Origin: Escherichia phage Ec_Makalu_003
Direction: 5' to 3' (one strand)
DNA length: 64,000 bases
Sequence record: MN882349.1
The position numbers were made by a program, and so were the translations under genes. Shown here in pieces: positions 2,979 to 41,851 of the stretch (positions are counted from its first letter, which is position 1; the number at the start of each line of letters is the position of its first letter). The notes under the pieces are model-generated. The model was not told the origin of the DNA, did not search any database, and was given only the letters and a program-made list of their open reading frames with translations.

Positions 2979-3026
2979 TATTAATATTGTCCATATGTAA
3001 ACTAAAATTATGTCAGTAATAGATAC

Positions 3027-3052
3027 AAAAAAAGCCGCCCCGAAGGACGGCT
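3027..3052 (-). terminator. rho-independent terminator (UUCG loop) for minus-strand transcripts
   Basis: AGCCGTCC-UUCG-GGGCGGCU hairpin then U-run when read on minus strand. Confidence 0.6.
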
Positions 3053-3060
3053 AATGTTAA

Positions 3061-3498
3061 TTATTTGTTGATAACGATCTGATTTCGGCGAATGGTGACA
3101 TTGCTCTTAGAGATGACCAGATCATCCGGCACTACGTTAGTTTTGTATGGTTGGAAGCGAACAAGCATCTGATTGCGTTTAGACCCTTCCTTAATCTTGA
3201 TTTCCATCTGGATATTGTTGCCTACGTGAGCAACCGCAATTTCACCTTTATTCTCATAGACCCACTTGCTGGTAACGTCTCCCGCAAAAGCCTTAATAAC
3301 TTGCAATGCTTCGTCGTATGCGGTAGAGCTGTGAACTTTCAGAAGGCCAGCCGTAGCAAGACGGGAGCAGGTGATCGCCGGAGATTGCCAAACATCAACA
3401 TTAATTTGCTCAATCAGAGTAACACCGCCCTGATCAACTGCTTTGAATGCTTCGAACATTGCCTTTTTCATTGCTACGTGGTTTTTACGGAATTTCAT
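3061..3498 (-). CDS. hypothetical protein (145 aa)
   Basis: Intact ORF with RBS in T4-like gene context. Confidence 0.6.
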   Translation of the reverse strand: MKFRKNHVAMKKAMFEAFKAVDQGGVTLIEQINVDVWQSPAITCSRLATAGLLKVHSSTAYDEALQVIKAFAGDVTSKWVYENKGEIAVAHVGNNIQMEIKIKEGSKRNQMLVRFQPYKTNVVPDDLVISKSNVTIRRNQIVINK

Positions 3499-16243: not shown

Positions 16244-16271
16244 AGGCGGGGGACAATCCCCCGCCTTTTTA
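16244..16271 (+). terminator. rho-independent terminator after gene 54
   Basis: AGGCGGGGGA-CAA-TCCCCCGCCT hairpin then T5. Confidence 0.75.
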
Positions 16272-16754
16272 TTTTGCTAAATCATTGCAATATTTTAGTG
16301 CCTTAGTTTGAAACTCTGCGCTGTTAAGTTCTTCATAACGGTCATAATCACCGTTTAATGCTGCCTTTCTTGCTTCTTGTTCTATCTGCATGTCAGACAT
16401 GATAATACAACGATCCCGCGATTTCATCTTCTCAAGTTGTATAGACTCTTCTTGTTGCTTGCGCAATTCTTCTTGATGCTTCTTTTCTTCTCGTGCTTTC
16501 TCTTCCCGCGCTTCTTTGATTGCATCTTTGAACATCTGCGTTTGTGGTGCTAAACCAACTTTAACGCGATCCACGTCTCGACGTTCCATTTTAGAAATAA
16601 AACATGATTCGATCTGGTCATCGCTTGCATATGCTGCTTTACATTCACGAAGCAAGAAAACCGGATCTGATTTAGCATTCATCATAGCTTCCATGTTAGT
16701 ACAACCAGTAAGCATGAATGCAGCCGCAAGACCAATCAGTTTAATCATTTTCAT
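16269..16754 (-). CDS. putative lipoprotein
   Basis: Signal peptide with LTGC lipobox, charged coiled-coil-like body, 161 aa. Confidence 0.65.
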   Translation of the reverse strand: MKMIKLIGLAAAFMLTGCTNMEAMMNAKSDPVFLLRECKAAYASDDQIESCFISKMERRDVDRVKVGLAPQTQMFKDAIKEAREEKAREEKKHQEELRKQQEESIQLEKMKSRDRCIIMSDMQIEQEARKAALNGDYDRYEELNSAEFQTKALKYCNDLAK

Positions 16755-17575
16755 TTAGTCACCTCACCGAAAATTGTAAATTGTCTACGATTCTCATCGC
16801 CGAAAGATTCTACTACGTCGTTTACCTTGATGCAAGTCCCGCGCGGTAAAATTACTTCACATTCGCAAGGATTCCATGCAATAGACCCAACAACAAAACC
16901 TTTATGATCTTTTACGTCAATTACCCATGATACATTACAAGAATGTTGCATCTTTCCGGTCATTGATTCATATCGATTCTCACAATAAAGGCTAGTGCTG
17001 TTTGAAAGCCATCCTCCAAAGATGATCGGTGTCATGCTGGTCGATACAAAGTTTTTAAAGGTAAATTCCTTATCTTCAATAATACGCTCTATTGTCTGAA
17101 TGTCAAGATGTTGACCGCGATAAAGAGTACCGTTTAACTTTTCGGTTTTATCCATGACACAATCCATCAAATCGACAATCTCTGATATCTCATCGGTCAT
17201 GTCTTCTTCCCCTAAGAGAGCACCATTTACCCATTCGTATTGTTCAGACACATAATCGCAGATTGCATTATATTCTGCTGGGGTTATGTTGTTATGTTTG
17301 TAATGTTTGAATACATTATCTCCAAAATCTTCGGAATGTACTTCATACATCACATTAATGATTTTCTTGACAAATCCATAATCTTGCGTTTCTCGCTCAA
17401 GGAAACGGATAACTTTCACGTAATCATCAAAGTTAATATGATCGCTGATCATTTCAGTGATCATGTAACCATTAATCCCCTCAATGCCATATGTTTCGAT
17501 GTAATTATCCATACGTTCCATCATTGATTCGCGTGATTCTTCGGAAAGGCGAAAATCCTGTAATTTCTTGAACAT
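16751..17575 (-). CDS. Alt-like ADP-ribosyltransferase (second, shorter paralog)
   Basis: Shares the catalytic block with the 683-aa Alt: LYRGQ, FKNFVSTS..IFGGW, ECEVILPRG (Arg / STS / ExE-type). Confidence 0.7.
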   Translation of the reverse strand: MFKKLQDFRLSEESRESMMERMDNYIETYGIEGINGYMITEMISDHINFDDYVKVIRFLERETQDYGFVKKIINVMYEVHSEDFGDNVFKHYKHNNITPAEYNAICDYVSEQYEWVNGALLGEEDMTDEISEIVDLMDCVMDKTEKLNGTLYRGQHLDIQTIERIIEDKEFTFKNFVSTSMTPIIFGGWLSNSTSLYCENRYESMTGKMQHSCNVSWVIDVKDHKGFVVGSIAWNPCECEVILPRGTCIKVNDVVESFGDENRRQFTIFGEVTK

Positions 17576-17653: not shown

Positions 17654-19705
17654 TTACATTTTAAATTTATCCGGCATAGCGTCTACAGACACAAGATCAG
17701 CGATAAGCTGACGTAGAGTTGCCTTATCTGCTTTCTTACGTTCGGTTTTAGCTTCGGTAATGAAGCTGGAGAAAGACAGGTCAGAAGCAGGTTTAACAAC
17801 ACCTTCACGGATGAATGCATCACCGTCCGCGATCATCTCACCAGATTCTTGTAATGCTGCCAGTTCATTTTTGTTCATAATATGTGCCTCAATGTAATAA
17901 GTTTCTTGTGAATCCGTCGATGCCGTAGCACGAGTTACCGTATCAAAGGATAACACAACACCGCGAGGAAGTAAAATCTCGCATTCTTTGTAAGCAAATG
18001 CTTTGTTACCTACTGGCAATACAGGGATGTTTTCCGCGCCAGCAATGGAGAAAGCAACATTAGCGCCACCTTCACCGCGAGATCCAGCCATAGAATCAAC
18101 ACCAGCAACGGCACTAGCCACGTTTGCATTCCATCCACCAAAAATATTAGGTGCAAGGGAAGTGCTCACATAGTTTTTAAAGTAAAACGCTTTTTGCTTA
18201 CGTGCAGTTTCCCACATTTGAGAACGGAAGTCCATACCACGATACAAGATAGTACCTGGATCAAGTTTAACACCATAGTTAGCAAATGCGTTATCCAGTG
18301 CATCACACATCTTGACCAATTCTTCTGGGTCTGCGATGCCTTCAAACTCTTCCAGCTTACGGTCGGTTAGGAAGTTGTTCATATTGATGTATGCTGCATC
18401 CGCATATTCGCTCAACACAAAACCTTCCGCGCCAGGCAGATCAAGATCAATATCTGCCATCATTTCACCCATGTTGCTAGCAATTGCTTCAAACATACCG
18501 GAAGCAACATTACGCAGGGCATCGGTTTTAATCTGCGTGATGTGACTACGCAGCATTTCAGCTTTTACATCTGCTGGCATAGACTGGTCGACGCGATCCA
18601 TTGCCAGGGCGGTGATCTTGTTTTCGAATACTTCCTCGCTCATGATTTCTTTTAAGCGTTTGATTGATGCTGCGATAACTTCCGCAGACAACGGATCATA
18701 TTGATCCTGAACTTTTACCAGTTCGCTTACTGCATATTTTGCATCGGCTTCGCTTTCAAAAATAGTACGCATGAAACCATAGCGAGTGATAATATCACTT
18801 GTCCAGTCATTCAGAGAACGGGCGGTTGAACGTTCTAAGGCTTGACGGTCAATCAGAGTATTAAACTGTTTCTTAGGTTCTGCTTCGGTGATATCTTCTT
18901 CCGGTTTAAGATTAATTTTTTCTGGATGATTCACATAGTCGCTGTTATAGGTCGCTTGAGTTTTCAGCATTTCTTCTTTAGTCAAACGAGATTTAGCCGC
19001 TACGCGTTGTTCTGCTTCCGCGTTTCGTTCTTCTTCCGACACAAGACTAGCCGCATACGCCTCATCTTTAGTCAGAGATTCACCAGTAGCCTTAGATACC
19101 CAGCGATCACCTAAATCACTTTCTACTTTAGTGAACAGGGATTCATCGAGTTTAATCCCTTTAATCTTATCAATCGCCATCCCGCGACGTTTGACAACAA
19201 CTAAAGCGATCTTTTTGCTGGTCATTACTTCCTGCTGGAATACTTCAAACTTCGGTGTACGACGCACCAAACGCTCTATAACGCGCTTAACCAGTTCGGT
19301 CTTACCTTTCATGCGGGATACGTTAAAACGGAACATAACAGCGTCTAATTGCGCTTTACGGGCTGTTTCCATGACCACATCAAAAGCACTTGACATAACT
19401 GCAATCGGGTTATCTCCTAGACCATTTTTAAGCTGTACAATACGACCGCTTTTGTTCATTTCGCACAGTACAACATGTGCGGTCTTGTCACCCATACGAA
19501 TGATTTTAGGTGTTTTGTTGGTGAAGTTACAAAGACGGACAATCACATCTTTATCGCGTGTCTGTACTGCAAAAAGCTGTTTAGGATTCTGCTTAGGCTT
19601 TAAGCACTGTACCGGAGCAATACTGCCAAAGTTTTCTTCCTCTTCCGTCAACAGCCATTTCTCGAAAGATTCAATCATTAGATCGTCGATTTCTAAGTTA
19701 AACAT
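17654..19705 (-). CDS. alt: Alt ADP-ribosyltransferase
   Basis: 683 aa (T4 Alt is about 680), C-terminal ART motifs YRG, VSTS, ECE; position after gene 54. Confidence 0.85.
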   Translation of the reverse strand: MFNLEIDDLMIESFEKWLLTEEEENFGSIAPVQCLKPKQNPKQLFAVQTRDKDVIVRLCNFTNKTPKIIRMGDKTAHVVLCEMNKSGRIVQLKNGLGDNPIAVMSSAFDVVMETARKAQLDAVMFRFNVSRMKGKTELVKRVIERLVRRTPKFEVFQQEVMTSKKIALVVVKRRGMAIDKIKGIKLDESLFTKVESDLGDRWVSKATGESLTKDEAYAASLVSEEERNAEAEQRVAAKSRLTKEEMLKTQATYNSDYVNHPEKINLKPEEDITEAEPKKQFNTLIDRQALERSTARSLNDWTSDIITRYGFMRTIFESEADAKYAVSELVKVQDQYDPLSAEVIAASIKRLKEIMSEEVFENKITALAMDRVDQSMPADVKAEMLRSHITQIKTDALRNVASGMFEAIASNMGEMMADIDLDLPGAEGFVLSEYADAAYINMNNFLTDRKLEEFEGIADPEELVKMCDALDNAFANYGVKLDPGTILYRGMDFRSQMWETARKQKAFYFKNYVSTSLAPNIFGGWNANVASAVAGVDSMAGSRGEGGANVAFSIAGAENIPVLPVGNKAFAYKECEILLPRGVVLSFDTVTRATASTDSQETYYIEAHIMNKNELAALQESGEMIADGDAFIREGVVKPASDLSFSSFITEAKTERKKADKATLRQLIADLVSVDAMPDKFKM

Positions 19706-27114: not shown

Positions 27115-27591
27115 TTATTTTTCTTGATGCTCGCGCTCGTACTTTTCGAAATAAAATTCTACTGGCTGATCGTGGATTGAAAGCAAGCCAAAGCGTTTAG
27201 CCGCACGTAATCCCATGTTACGTTGAATGTACTTCTGGAAGTTCTCGCGTATACACTTACGCCAGTATTCTAAGCCCATACAGCTTTTGTAAAGATTGCA
27301 TTGCACACAAGCCGGATTCATGTTGTCAAGTATATCGTGCTCCGGTTTATGCATTCCTACAACCTTATACTTCCACGATCCATCATCATTACGGGCAATT
27401 CGTCCATTTTCATCATAGACTACTTTTGAGCGTCGCAATACTGGTTTGATGTGGTCTGCGTGCCAGCGATCCCCTAGTTCCTCGCCACAATAGGCACAAC
27501 GCCCACCGTATTTCATTTTCAGGATCTGGCGTTGCTCTTTCTTTGACAATTTTTTAGGTTTAGGGGCTTTCGCCCCTTCATTATCACACAT
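27115..27591 (-). CDS. HNH endonuclease
   Basis: CAYCG...HADHIKP...NMNPACVQCN: canonical HNH CxxC / H-x-DH / N / CxxC arrangement; start overlaps the ligase stop. Confidence 0.8.
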   Translation of the reverse strand: MCDNEGAKAPKPKKLSKKEQRQILKMKYGGRCAYCGEELGDRWHADHIKPVLRRSKVVYDENGRIARNDDGSWKYKVVGMHKPEHDILDNMNPACVQCNLYKSCMGLEYWRKCIRENFQKYIQRNMGLRAAKRFGLLSIHDQPVEFYFEKYEREHQEK

Positions 27592-29086
27592 CGAATACCT
27601 CTTTTACTGTATTTGCAGTGGTCTTGTCGTAGCGAATACGTTTGATGATTGGGAGAAATAAAGAGAACTCCGGTTCATCTTCTTTACGTGATTTGCTGCG
27701 GATATATCCGTTGCATGTCATCTCAATGACTTTTCCGATCAGGTTATGACGGTCAGCCCATAACATTTCTCGGTCGAGTTCATTTCGACGATCGAACGGA
27801 ATTACACGTTCAATACCATCATCATCTTTTTCGGTTGTGGTGTCGGTCAATCCCGATCCGGTGTTAGTCGTCATTCGTCCGCACGCACTACGGACAGTAA
27901 AACCGCCTACCTTGTTAGGATCTTTACTATGCGGATATACATCAACAATTTCCGCGTCGAAGTCAATCACTTCTTTAAATTTAACCTGATCTTTACTGCG
28001 ACGATCTTCAAATACACCATGTAAATTTTTAAGGATAATACCTTCTAATCCCATGTTGACATAACGATGATATACTTCGCGAGCTTCATCGATATTGTTA
28101 ACTACAGTGTTTTCGATTATCTGAACACGAGGATCGTTAAGTTCTTCAACAATCTGTTTTAGTTCTTCGAATCGATCTTTATATTGCTTCGTTGCTTTCT
28201 CGTTTCCGTAATACACATCACGGTCGATAACATCCCAGACAGTGTAAACAATACATTGGGCTTCTTCTTTTGGAATAGTTCCTTTCAGTGATTTGTTGAG
28301 GATACCATTTCCGGTCTGACGGTCTGCAACAACGGATTCTTTCACTGCTTCCGCTACTGGCGTTAATGGCATTTCCTCTTCTTCAAATATCCATGATAGA
28401 GTACCATCATAAACGCTCTCAACGAAGTTCTGCGCTGGTGTTTGAGAAAGGGTAGGCATATATACCAACTCACCATCTAAAACAATTCCACGGCCTCGTA
28501 GACGCTCTAAAACAGCAAACAAATCATCCAGCCCCTGATAGGTATTACCTGAACGGGTATAGATTGCTAATGTTTCTCCGTCAATATCAGCCATACCACG
28601 AGCGCCATCGCTTTTAAGTTGTGCATACGCCGGATATTTGATATTGGCAATAGTCTTATCAGAACATGACGATGCAAGGTGGCACGGCTGCTGAGGAATC
28701 AGCTTCTTCCATACCTTGTTTGCGGTGGTAGCGGAACAACCGCATTCCAGATCACGATTCAGGACCATCATTGCAACTTTAGCATCATCTTCTGACAAGC
28801 AAGTCAGAGTATCGGTAACTAGCTGTAATGCAGCATTACCAGTTACTTGACGCGTGGCAAGTTTATTTTTAAAGACCTGTAATGCACCGGATAAAGACAA
28901 TACAGACGAATAGCGAGACGGTTTATCGTATTTCTTTACGCCAAACGTAACCTGCTTGCAATATGCCAGATAAAAGCATTCTTTCAGCGTTTCATTGCTT
29001 GCAGATTCTTTCAGGATCTTTTCTTTCAGCGATGTTTTGTCAGTGGCTGCAAGCTGATTAATGATATTAAGAATTGACATTTTCAC
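27584..29086 (-). CDS. 30: ATP-dependent DNA ligase gp30
   Basis: 500 aa, alignable to T4 DNA ligase (GNAA, DGELVY, GIILKN, KFKEVID segments). Confidence 0.92.
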   Translation of the reverse strand: MKMSILNIINQLAATDKTSLKEKILKESASNETLKECFYLAYCKQVTFGVKKYDKPSRYSSVLSLSGALQVFKNKLATRQVTGNAALQLVTDTLTCLSEDDAKVAMMVLNRDLECGCSATTANKVWKKLIPQQPCHLASSCSDKTIANIKYPAYAQLKSDGARGMADIDGETLAIYTRSGNTYQGLDDLFAVLERLRGRGIVLDGELVYMPTLSQTPAQNFVESVYDGTLSWIFEEEEMPLTPVAEAVKESVVADRQTGNGILNKSLKGTIPKEEAQCIVYTVWDVIDRDVYYGNEKATKQYKDRFEELKQIVEELNDPRVQIIENTVVNNIDEAREVYHRYVNMGLEGIILKNLHGVFEDRRSKDQVKFKEVIDFDAEIVDVYPHSKDPNKVGGFTVRSACGRMTTNTGSGLTDTTTEKDDDGIERVIPFDRRNELDREMLWADRHNLIGKVIEMTCNGYIRSKSRKEDEPEFSLFLPIIKRIRYDKTTANTVKEVFDV

Positions 29087-29546
29087 CTCGTTTTGTTAAA
29101 CGTTCACGAATATCATTTAGGATACTACAAAATTCCGATTCGGTCAATATGGTCTTTAACGGATCAGTTCCACCTATGCTATGACGCAATTTCTTATTTC
29201 CGGTAGCGAGCAATGCTTTACAAAAATCTGGGTTATTTCGTGCCATCGTAACAAATGCCAGATGTACCAGTCTGTAATAATGCTCACTCATTCGATGAAT
29301 CGGGCGACCCTGAAAATATAGCATGTGATTCTCTATCTTTTCAGTCCTTCCGGTTCTTTTTGCTTTGCAGCCGTGCATCAAAAAGATTTCTCTTTGTCTC
29401 TGAGGGTTCTTAAATCTTAGCCCCTGTAAAAATCCTTCTGTGCTGTTAATATCGCAACCAAATAGACGGAATGGCCTTTTATTGAAATTACTCAACTCGC
29501 CAGATGGATAAGGTCCACCCGCATAGATATCAATTTCAGAAGTCAT
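29067..29546 (-). CDS. NADAR (YbiA-like, DUF1768) domain protein
   Basis: GELSNFNKRPF...NSTEGFLQGLRFKN...ALLATG resembles E. coli YbiA motifs (GDFSNF, TSEHYFQAQKF, LLAT). Confidence 0.65.
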   Translation of the reverse strand: MTSEIDIYAGGPYPSGELSNFNKRPFRLFGCDINSTEGFLQGLRFKNPQRQREIFLMHGCKAKRTGRTEKIENHMLYFQGRPIHRMSEHYYRLVHLAFVTMARNNPDFCKALLATGNKKLRHSIGGTDPLKTILTESEFCSILNDIRERLTKRGENVNS

Positions 29547-29700
29547 TGAAACTAATCTCGCTAATCAGAGAGAACGGATCATAATCGTCATGAGGAATAT
29601 CGATAGTAATCGAGTGAGGATTTACCCATACACCAAACTGGTCTTCTTCGGTGAATACTTCGGTATGGATTTCGTGGATGTTTACATTCATAGTTTTCAT
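29536..29700 (-). CDS. small hypothetical protein (54 aa)
   Basis: ATG with AAGGAA RBS; stop overlaps the start of the NADAR gene. Confidence 0.45.
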   Translation of the reverse strand: MKTMNVNIHEIHTEVFTEEDQFGVWVNPHSITIDIPHDDYDPFSLISEISFNDF

Positions 29701-29783
29701 AATAAAAATTCCTTAATAATCAATAACTTACAAAATCATATAGCCAAAATATAGGCGGGATTATTTCCCGCCGTTTAAACTCA

Positions 29784-40279: not shown

Positions 40280-40582
40280 TCATATATCAAGCGTATTTTC
40301 TGGAGTATCGCCGAAAACTCTATTAACGAGATCCGCCAATACTTCACCGTGGCATTTCTTAGGGTAGCAAGTACAACCTAAGCGCATATGTCTTAATACT
40401 TCTAAATGCGCCCGTGTTATCTCACCATTTCGAATCTTATTATACAACCACTCTTTGTATAATGCAATAGCTTTCTCTCGTCCGTATTCTTTGGCGGTGT
40501 ATGGATTTCCCCACATAGTACCACGCTGAATATTAACATCAAAATCGCTATTGTATTTGTTTACAACGCGGCATATTTTCAT
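40280..40582 (-). CDS. DUF4326-like small protein
   Basis: 100 aa, MWGNPYT and CTCYPKKCHGEVL motifs. Confidence 0.5.
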   Translation of the reverse strand: MKICRVVNKYNSDFDVNIQRGTMWGNPYTAKEYGREKAIALYKEWLYNKIRNGEITRAHLEVLRHMRLGCTCYPKKCHGEVLADLVNRVFGDTPENTLDI

Positions 40583-40618: not shown

Positions 40619-41851
40619 TTATACTGCCATTTGAGCGGTGATCGCTGGATGGCTTTGATAGTTGTGAATTTTAAAGTCTTTCGGAGTTTTTGTCAATACC
40701 TCATCTAAAGATTTAAATTCCGGCAACTCAATTGTTGGTTTATCAAACGGAACACGGCTTAACTGTTCCATCACTTGGTCAAAGTGATTTTTGTAAATGT
40801 GAGTATCTCCGCCGGAGAAAATCAGTTCTCCTACTTCGAGATCACACATTTTCGCTATGATGTGAGTTAACAGCGCATAGCTGGCGACGTTAAAGGGCAA
40901 ACCCAAAAAGCTGTCTACGCTTCGCTGAAACCACATACAAGACAGTTTACCCTCATTGACATAGAATTGCACGAACGGATGACATACACCTAATACAGCA
41001 TTATGTGTTCCTTGTACGTTCCATGAGTCAATGATGATACGTCGATCCGTTGGATTGTTTTTAATTTGTTCAATCACGTTTTGTAACTGGTCTTCCCAAA
41101 TCTTCGGGCGATAGACATATTCTTCATCGTCTTTAGTGCTCGATGTGTCTATGTCCATACTAGCAAAGATCGTGGTATCCGGTGCTAAAATGTCACCGCC
41201 TAGATAATCACTATCAAGCAGATAACCGAAATAACCATCATCTACCCATTCCTGGAATCCCCACAAGCAATATGCATCATTAACAAAATTAGATTGAGTC
41301 TTCCAGTGGTCCGCTACTAAGAATTGATTATATTCAGAATCAAACTCTTCATAACGCATACCACGCCAGATAGCACATAAACGCTCTTCTGTGTCATTGT
41401 TTGGCGTAAAGTCTTCTACCCACGGGTGTTTAAATGTATGTGTATATTTGCTCTTAACGCGCTTAATTTTGATTTCACCGTGTGGATGAATCGGTTTGCG
41501 TCGCCACGCCATACCATACATATTGCCGACATTATAACCATTGAATCGCAAGGGATTCTTTTCTTTCATATCAAGACAGTTGCCGCGCCAAATATCAAAT
41601 GCTTCCTCGTCAAACTTTCCGCGTGTAATTTCCTGTAAGCGACGGCGGTCAAGTGATCCCTCCATAAACCATAGCAATTCGCCAATTACAGAGGCTGTAG
41701 CCATCTTTTTAGTGGTCAGTAATGGGAAACCCTTGCTTAAATCAATTCGCATCTCTGTGCCGAATTTAGAGAGCGTACCTACCCCCGTGCGGTCTTCACG
41801 AGGCCAGCCATTATCAAGAACATCACGCAATAGTTTCAAATATTCTTTCAT
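40619..41851 (-). CDS. td: thymidylate synthase with a large in-frame insertion
   Basis: DRTGVGT, catalytic CHPF, SFLGLPFNVASYALLTHIIAKMCDLEVGE, C-terminal PKDFKIHNYQSHPAITAQMAV match T4 Td; about 128 extra residues between YGMAWRR and WEDQLQNV. Confidence 0.85.
   Translation of the reverse strand: MKEYLKLLRDVLDNGWPREDRTGVGTLSKFGTEMRIDLSKGFPLLTTKKMATASVIGELLWFMEGSLDRRRLQEITRGKFDEEAFDIWRGNCLDMKEKNPLRFNGYNVGNMYGMAWRRKPIHPHGEIKIKRVKSKYTHTFKHPWVEDFTPNNDTEERLCAIWRGMRYEEFDSEYNQFLVADHWKTQSNFVNDAYCLWGFQEWVDDGYFGYLLDSDYLGGDILAPDTTIFASMDIDTSSTKDDEEYVYRPKIWEDQLQNVIEQIKNNPTDRRIIIDSWNVQGTHNAVLGVCHPFVQFYVNEGKLSCMWFQRSVDSFLGLPFNVASYALLTHIIAKMCDLEVGELIFSGGDTHIYKNHFDQVMEQLSRVPFDKPTIELPEFKSLDEVLTKTPKDFKIHNYQSHPAITAQMAV

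Follow-up and report, generated by a model that had tools for sequence, protein, structure and literature searches.

The 159-residue protein encoded on the minus strand at 29067..29546 of the window, the 64,000-nucleotide stretch of Escherichia phage Ec_Makalu_003 (MN882349.1) analyzed here, is the Krischvirus ortholog of the T4 gene 30.3 product, AdfN, and a minimal stand-alone NADAR-fold enzyme, predicted to be an ADP-ribosyl-guanine glycohydrolase built of the NADAR core. Most probably, it is a working AdfN that hydrolyzes the guanine-N2-ADP-ribose made by DarT1 on phage DNA. The preliminary description of this DNA had called the gene correctly, yet the gene and its function had already been published: family, fold, reaction and counter-defense role all appeared between 2023 and 2025, and the assignment brings no new biology.

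The reading frame opens with an ATG and contains the motifs named in the preliminary description, GELSNF (residues 16-21), STEGFLQGLRF (35-45) and LLAT (112-115). The window is that of a Krischvirus (RB49/Phi1-like) coliphage, a genus of the Straboviridae; the 4 kb round 30.3 are 99.5% identical to Escherichia phage Ec_Makalu_002 and 96-97% identical to Phi1, GEC-3S and RB49, all Krischvirus. A tblastn search matched the gene in 1509 phage records, a copy of the window protein with at least 95% identity is carried by 59 phage records, and a profile built from the 159 residues, run against a library of 1.8 billion proteins, matched 1680 representative clusters (E<=0.001). Between the window and Phi1, 15 codons of the gene differ, 13 synonymously and 2 nonsynonymously, and the sequence comparison indicates that purifying selection acts on it. 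By the same kind of evidence, the frame is a real conserved gene rather than a chance one. The Phi1 reference record labels it '30.3, gp30.3 conserved hypothetical protein', and most Krischvirus records 'hypothetical protein'.

The family call of the preliminary description was upheld, although not through the Pfam NADAR model that it had proposed as a check. This model, PF08719, scored 14.9 bits (E 0.032), below its gathering score of 35.1, and the significant match was to the sister model PF08010 (Phage_30_3), with 133.6 bits against a gathering score of 36 and coverage of profile positions 2-138 of 138; phrog_652 was matched at 2e-45. The PF08719 score falls short because Pfam splits the NADAR superfamily into two models, and the NADAR relationship is therefore established through PF08010 together with the fold. 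When PF08010 members were scanned singly, all 82 matched PF08010 and 20 of them also matched PF08719 (E<=0.01), with a best E of 1e-6, and in one family member a match to YbiA (E 2.7e-4) took in the SNF, E..Q..K and LLAT motifs. Searches of PDB sequences gave little: family profiles gave only a weak match to YbiA (E 0.01), confined to the N-terminal motif, and a single-sequence search with the window protein returned no NADAR among its matches. A DltA ligase match from that search (E 4e-4) was set aside as chance, nothing else supporting it. PADLOC gave no match for the window protein, the defense-system DarG models thus falling short of the gp30.3 clade, and the NCBIfam anti-phage NADAR model was matched far below threshold only.

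Given the weakness of the profile matches to PDB sequences, the family could be settled only by comparing folds. The AlphaFold2 model of the protein, built on a 14-sequence alignment from which the T2 sequence was left out, reached a pLDDT of 94.1 and a pTM of 0.89, and Foldseek matched it to NADAR structures only. The window protein also shares 38% identity with T2 AdfN from end to end. It is a member of the gp30.3 clade and has the NADAR fold.

Most of what can be said about its activity comes from T4. NADAR proteins hydrolyze ADP-ribose from guanine and act as DarT1 antitoxins, and their key residues have been defined (Schuller et al. 2023, PMC11543638). T4 gp30.3 was found to hydrolyze guanine-ADP-ribose in vitro (Cihlova et al. 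2024, PMC11125620), and the DarTG1 resistance of T-even phages was then mapped to gene 30.3, renamed adfN (Johannesman et al. 2025, PMC11825919). According to the latter study, T4 AdfN is necessary and sufficient for counter-defense, removes ADP-ribose from DNA and does not counter DarTG2, the system of thymine-ADP-ribose; its function needs E36, K43 and the C-terminal helix, which RB69 has lost by a frameshift. The HIDEN-SEQ transposon screen found adfN to be conditionally essential on DarTG1 hosts, the T4 gene being dispensable on E. coli K-12 and essential only with DarTG1 (bioRxiv 10.1101/2025.11.20.689424). In view of this genetics and biochemistry, the earlier suggestion of a NADAR-family enzyme that counters DarT by freeing DNA guanines of ADP-ribose is essentially right. 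A literature search on Krischvirus or RB49 with DarTG found no experiment on any Krischvirus ortholog. AdfN-T4 is fully effective only during T-even infection and apparently needs a further phage factor (PMC11825919), which weighs against full function in Krischvirus, as it may lack such a factor.

The active-site positions defined in these studies were located in the window protein. Glu37 (codon 29436..29438, minus strand) corresponds to E36 in T4 AdfN, E43 in PnNADAR and E88 in EcC7 NADAR, the residue that contacts the distal ribose and for whose equivalents mutational evidence exists (PMC11825919, PMC11543638). It is invariant in the family alignments A1 and A3, and a glutamate occupies the position in 163 of the 171 aligned domains that our residue census took from the representative search. 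Seven residues further on, the spacing seen in T4, Pn and EcC7, Arg44 (codon 29415..29417, minus strand) stands in the place of the phosphate-coordinating lysine (T4 K43, PnNADAR K50, EcC7 K95); it aligns with the YbiA lysine in the profile match. Regarding the last beta-strand, the AlphaFold2 model places it at residues 119-121, directly followed by His122 (codon 29181..29183, minus strand), a residue specific to phage NADARs where YbiA has a glutamate and DarG1 an aspartate (Schuller et al. 2023, PMC11543638) and a hallmark of gp30.3 (PMC11125620, PMC11543638). Neither A1 nor A3 shows any variation at His122, and 159 of the 171 domains have this histidine. The C-terminal alpha-helix that is missing from the inactive RB69 allele is intact and modeled with high confidence at residues 136-157 (29076..29141, minus strand), and the alignment of the window protein extends to the C-terminus of T2 AdfN. 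Lys63 is also kept, as in 145 of the 171 domains.

On this basis, the following course of events may be proposed. In an infected DarTG1 cell, the DarT1 toxin would modify guanines of the phage DNA at N2 with ADP-ribose and thereby block phage replication. AdfN would bind the ADP-ribose moiety, with Glu37 directed to the distal ribose, the basic residue 44 to the diphosphate and His122 as the third active-site group, and would hydrolyze the N-glycosidic bond between ribose and guanine, giving back a normal guanine on which replication could proceed. For the window protein itself, the proposal draws on family membership, the NADAR fold, conserved residues of the active site, a C-terminal helix that is complete, synteny and the signs of purifying selection; only the T4 protein has been demonstrated to act as a hydrolase on guanine-ADP-ribosylated DNA, to be both necessary and sufficient against DarTG1 and to have no effect on DarTG2 (PMC11825919, PMC11125620). 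That a 38%-identical ortholog with an arginine for the usual lysine would do the same job as T4 AdfN is argued by analogy.

The arginine deserves weighing, as it could mark a true AdfN-family NADAR that has been weakened or retuned, and that would be a poor anti-DarT1 factor, would act on other adducts (guanine-ADP-ribose on RNA, or the products of other guanine-directed transferases) or would need other conditions than the T4 enzyme. Among the 171 domains, position 44 is a lysine in 160 and an arginine in six, three of which are the window protein and its closest relatives. Since Phi1 and GEC-3S share the arginine with the window, the replacement is a fixed trait of the lineage. In EcC7 NADAR, the corresponding K95R mutant kept hydrolysis in vitro but lost the rescue of cells from DarT1 (PMC11543638), and K43A weakened the counter-defense of T4 AdfN (PMC11825919); by analogy, the potency of the Arg44 protein against DarT1 could be reduced or retuned. 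The portions of the literature consulted further describe hydrolysis of guanine-ADP-ribose on RNA by NADARs, that of T4 included, and a base specificity that differs among NADAR subfamilies. Nevertheless, arginine is a conservative replacement that supported catalysis in the one enzyme tested, EcC7 NADAR, and the T4 phage NADAR hydrolyzed guanine-ADP-ribose in every assay described in those portions. No other conserved position is altered and purifying selection acts on the gene, which argues that a working enzyme is maintained, and we regard a weakened or retuned enzyme as unlikely. A bolder version, in which Arg44 and the Lys63 that T-even AdfN has lost together mark a functionally distinct AdfN subtype that is free of the T-even helper factor or has its substrates shifted (to RNA guanine-ADP-ribose or adducts of guanine-transferases other than DarT1), is offered only as a speculative idea, and a rather improbable one; if true, comparison with AdfN-T4 could reveal why the T4 enzyme depends on the infection context.

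Along the minus strand, gene 31 (co-chaperonin) is followed in turn by a terminator-like hairpin, a 54-residue ORF, 30.3, gene 30 (DNA ligase) and an HNH endonuclease. The preliminary description had placed the NADAR gene downstream of DNA ligase, which holds in plus-strand coordinates only; in the direction of transcription, adfN lies upstream. The ATP-dependent ligase gene (27584..29080, minus strand; PF01068, phrog_114 at 3e-142 and the Phi1 annotation) starts with an ATG at 29080 inside adfN, overlapping its last 14 nt, and a GGTG Shine-Dalgarno sequence precedes this ATG. On the other side, the 54-residue ORF (29536..29700, minus strand) belongs to a family without an assigned function (phrog_15277, 6e-42) and is ORF215 in Phi1; its end and the start of adfN share 11 nt, and translational coupling of the two is likely. 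Between gene 31 and the block formed by this ORF, adfN and the ligase gene, a consensus scan identified, by pattern match alone, a GC hairpin that resembles a terminator, with a T run behind it (29754..29772, minus strand); the GEC-3S record likewise carries a terminator annotation there. A promoter scan gave 14 sites against 11.5 +/- 3.7 in shuffled sequence, and in the absence of enrichment no promoter is claimed.

The order 31, 54-residue ORF, 30.3, 30 is common to the window, Phi1 and GEC-3S, and the position of 30.3 between genes 31 and 30 is that of the T4-like gene order. In T2 and Ac42, the order reads 30.3-30.2-(30.1)-30-alt, and 30.3 directly adjoins the ligase gene in the window because 30.2 and 30.1 are missing from that position. 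The absence from this place of the two genes that follow 30.3 in T2 is itself an observation that speaks against full function. Elsewhere the adjacency is absent, the 30.3 homologue lying after a tRNA cluster in Aeromonas phage AhFM11 and ahead of a helicase in Rhizobium phage RL38J1. The position beside ligase, read as meaningful in the preliminary description, is thus an inherited, lineage-specific T4-like synteny and does not speak for a functional link. According to the chemistry reported in PMC11543638, NADAR hydrolysis would restore the guanine intact and without a nick, so that no ligation step is expected. Lineage-specific synteny and a nick-free reaction together led us to reject functional coupling of 30.3 to ligase.

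The wider context had been presented as an extended set of ADP-ribose writers and erasers. Its members are real: Alt (17654-19705), a 274-residue Alt-like ADP-ribosyltransferase (16751-17575; PF03496, phrog_15144), a DUF4326 protein (40280-40582; 81.6 bits) and a DprA-like ORF (2059-2646) with a sub-threshold Pfam match and a phrog_768 match at 1e-60. DprA presumably falls within the SLOG clan of Pfam. Distances of 9 to 27 kb separate these genes from adfN, and Phi1 lacks the DUF4326 gene, which was found in only six phage records, against the 59 that carry a close copy of the window protein; by distances and counts, the SLOG-like and DUF4326 genes do not form a co-inherited module with adfN, and nothing ties the ADP-ribosyltransferase, NADAR, SLOG-like and DUF4326 genes of the window into one. 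Their co-occurrence, correctly seen, had already been described for large phages, together with Macro proteins, by Iyer et al. 2022 (PMC9503650), who also noted that T4-like NADARs sit with early ADP-ribosyltransferase genes.

From such co-occurrence and from fusions, the same authors proposed that the substrates of phage NADAR, Macro, SLOG and DUF4326 domains are soluble ADP-ribose derivatives of low molecular weight, for instance immune signals or toxic products of NAD breakdown (PMC9503650). The window, with its DprA/SLOG-like and DUF4326 genes, would offer the partners for such a main role, but they stand 27 kb and 11 kb from adfN, respectively, and the rarity of the DUF4326 gene beside the 59 records with a close copy of the window protein speaks against joint inheritance. 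Moreover, the proposal is older than the experiments, which then showed the T4 ortholog to act on guanine-ADP-ribose in DNA and adfN loss in T4 to give a DarTG1-specific phenotype; we therefore hold a main role on soluble derivatives to be very improbable. The most improbable of the explanations weighed is that the protein erases, in host takeover, the ADP-ribosylation or RNAylation written by the phage's own Alt and second Alt-like transferase. Both transferases are encoded in the same window, the order 30.3-30.2-30-alt puts the genes close together in T2 and Ac42, and NADARs and ADP-ribosyltransferases are co-expressed in T4-like phages according to Iyer et al. (PMC9503650). Against this stands the range of substrates: in the parts of the published accounts consulted, base-linked ADP-ribose is the only substrate described for NADARs, which were inactive on phosphate-linked RNA ADP-ribose, and on E. 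coli K-12 T4 can do without the gene unless DarTG1 is present. The Alt-type enzymes of T4, for their part, modify arginine side chains of proteins. The T4 phenotypes in the literature and the NADAR substrate range, as far as these accounts describe it, disfavor both the soluble-derivative and the Alt-eraser explanations.

In practice, gene 30.3 in Krischvirus can be labeled adfN (NADAR-type anti-DarTG1 factor) in place of 'hypothetical protein'. A working AdfN predicts that RB49-like phages would resist E. coli carrying DarTG1, which would be useful for choosing therapeutic phages.

Among known systems, the closest is the gp30.3 (AdfN) of T4 and T2, the T2 protein being 98% identical to that of T4 (PMC11825919). 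The window protein shares with them the PF08010 family, the minimal NADAR core, the catalytic glutamate, the phage-specific histidine, the C-terminal helix and the neighborhood from gene 31 to gene 30. It differs in Arg44, where T4 has Lys43, in Lys63, where T2 has a glutamine, in a C-terminus seven residues longer and in the direct abutment of 30.3 on the ligase gene, without 30.2 and 30.1 in between.

Unlike DarG1, the antitoxin of DarTG1 (the Geobacter lovleyi NADAR, PDB 8bat, and the E. coli C7 NADAR), the window gene is an orphan without an adjacent DarT1. A DarT-DarG-like toxin-antitoxin pair was ruled out, the neighbors of adfN being the 54-residue ORF and DNA ligase, with no transferase adjacent. 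The 8bat protein has an N-terminal extension and counts 219 residues, whereas the window protein consists of the core only, with 159 residues, and 137 of the 219 were aligned; DarG1 also has an aspartate in the last strand in place of His122. AdfN-T4 cannot replace DarG1 in uninfected cells (PMC11825919).

E. coli YbiA (PDB 2b3w) and the Phytophthora NADAR (PDB 8bau) belong to PF08719, which the window protein matches only below threshold, and YbiA-type proteins, with a glutamate at the place of His122, are housekeeping N-glycosidases of riboflavin metabolism (PMC11825919). Finally, AdfN-Bas32 and AdfN-Bas60, from T5-like phages and Vequintavirinae, are likewise orphan phage NADARs and have anti-DarTG1 activity (PMC11825919); they represent other NADAR clades, acquired independently, and need no extra phage factor, whereas the window protein falls into the T4-type clade.

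The 159-aa NADAR-fold protein AdfN (gene 30.3, 29067-29546, minus strand) is preceded on the same strand by a 54-aa ORF (29536-29700), recovered by ORF calling and a match to phrog_15277. The last 11 nt of this ORF are shared with the beginning of adfN, and the ORF itself lies behind a terminator-like hairpin at 29754-29772. This small ORF gave no Pfam match, and phrog_15277 is a family without assigned function. It is kept in the related Krischvirus phages Phi1 (as ORF215) and GEC-3S; the T2 and Ac42 annotations list no counterpart at the same spot.

On the other side of adfN, the 3′ end of the ligase gene (27584-29080, minus strand) is overlapped by 8 nt by an HNH endonuclease gene (27115-27591, minus strand; PF01844, phrog_2118). 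About 400 bp further on, ORF210 of Phi1 and GEC-3S (~310 bp) is missing from the window phage, and the megablast alignment breaks into two pieces at this site.

Among the other genes linked to ADP-ribose, full-length Alt (17654-19705) is directly followed by a short Alt-like ADP-ribosyltransferase of 274 aa (16751-17575, minus strand; phrog_15144), which in turn overlaps a 161-aa ORF with no assigned function (16269-16754, minus strand; phrog_16112). This pair is kept in Phi1 as ORF183 and ORF182. The DUF4326 gene (40280-40582, minus strand; 100 aa, 81.6 bits), whose family is predicted to process ADP-ribose phosphates (PMC9503650), is an accessory insertion within Krischvirus: it has nrdA and td as its neighbours, is missing from the same position in Phi1 and was found by megablast in only six phage records (Makalu_001/002, SSG23, SFHK24, LF73P4 and E26). 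The adjacent thymidylate synthase ORF (td, 40619-41851, minus strand; 410 aa) matches its Pfam profile in two stretches, the best of which aligns residues 254-410 with profile positions 110-266; this split match suggests that the N-terminal half of the protein holds a large insertion. The Phi1 td is of similar length.

Within AdfN itself, alignment places an arginine at residue 44 (codon 29415-29417, minus strand), where NADARs have a phosphate-binding lysine. Arginine occupies this position in all three Krischvirus copies examined, and a residue census found lysine in 160 of the 171 family domains. A Lys-to-Arg substitution engineered in the E. coli C7 NADAR uncoupled activity in vitro from rescue in vivo (PMC11543638).

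The same census, applied to position 63, returned lysine in 145/171 domains, as in the window protein (Lys63). The T2 AdfN (coding region 2998-3453 of the T2 sequence L002), in contrast, carries a glutamine at the position aligned with Lys63; the T4 protein, AdfN-T4, has been described as lacking full activity outside T-even infection (PMC11825919).
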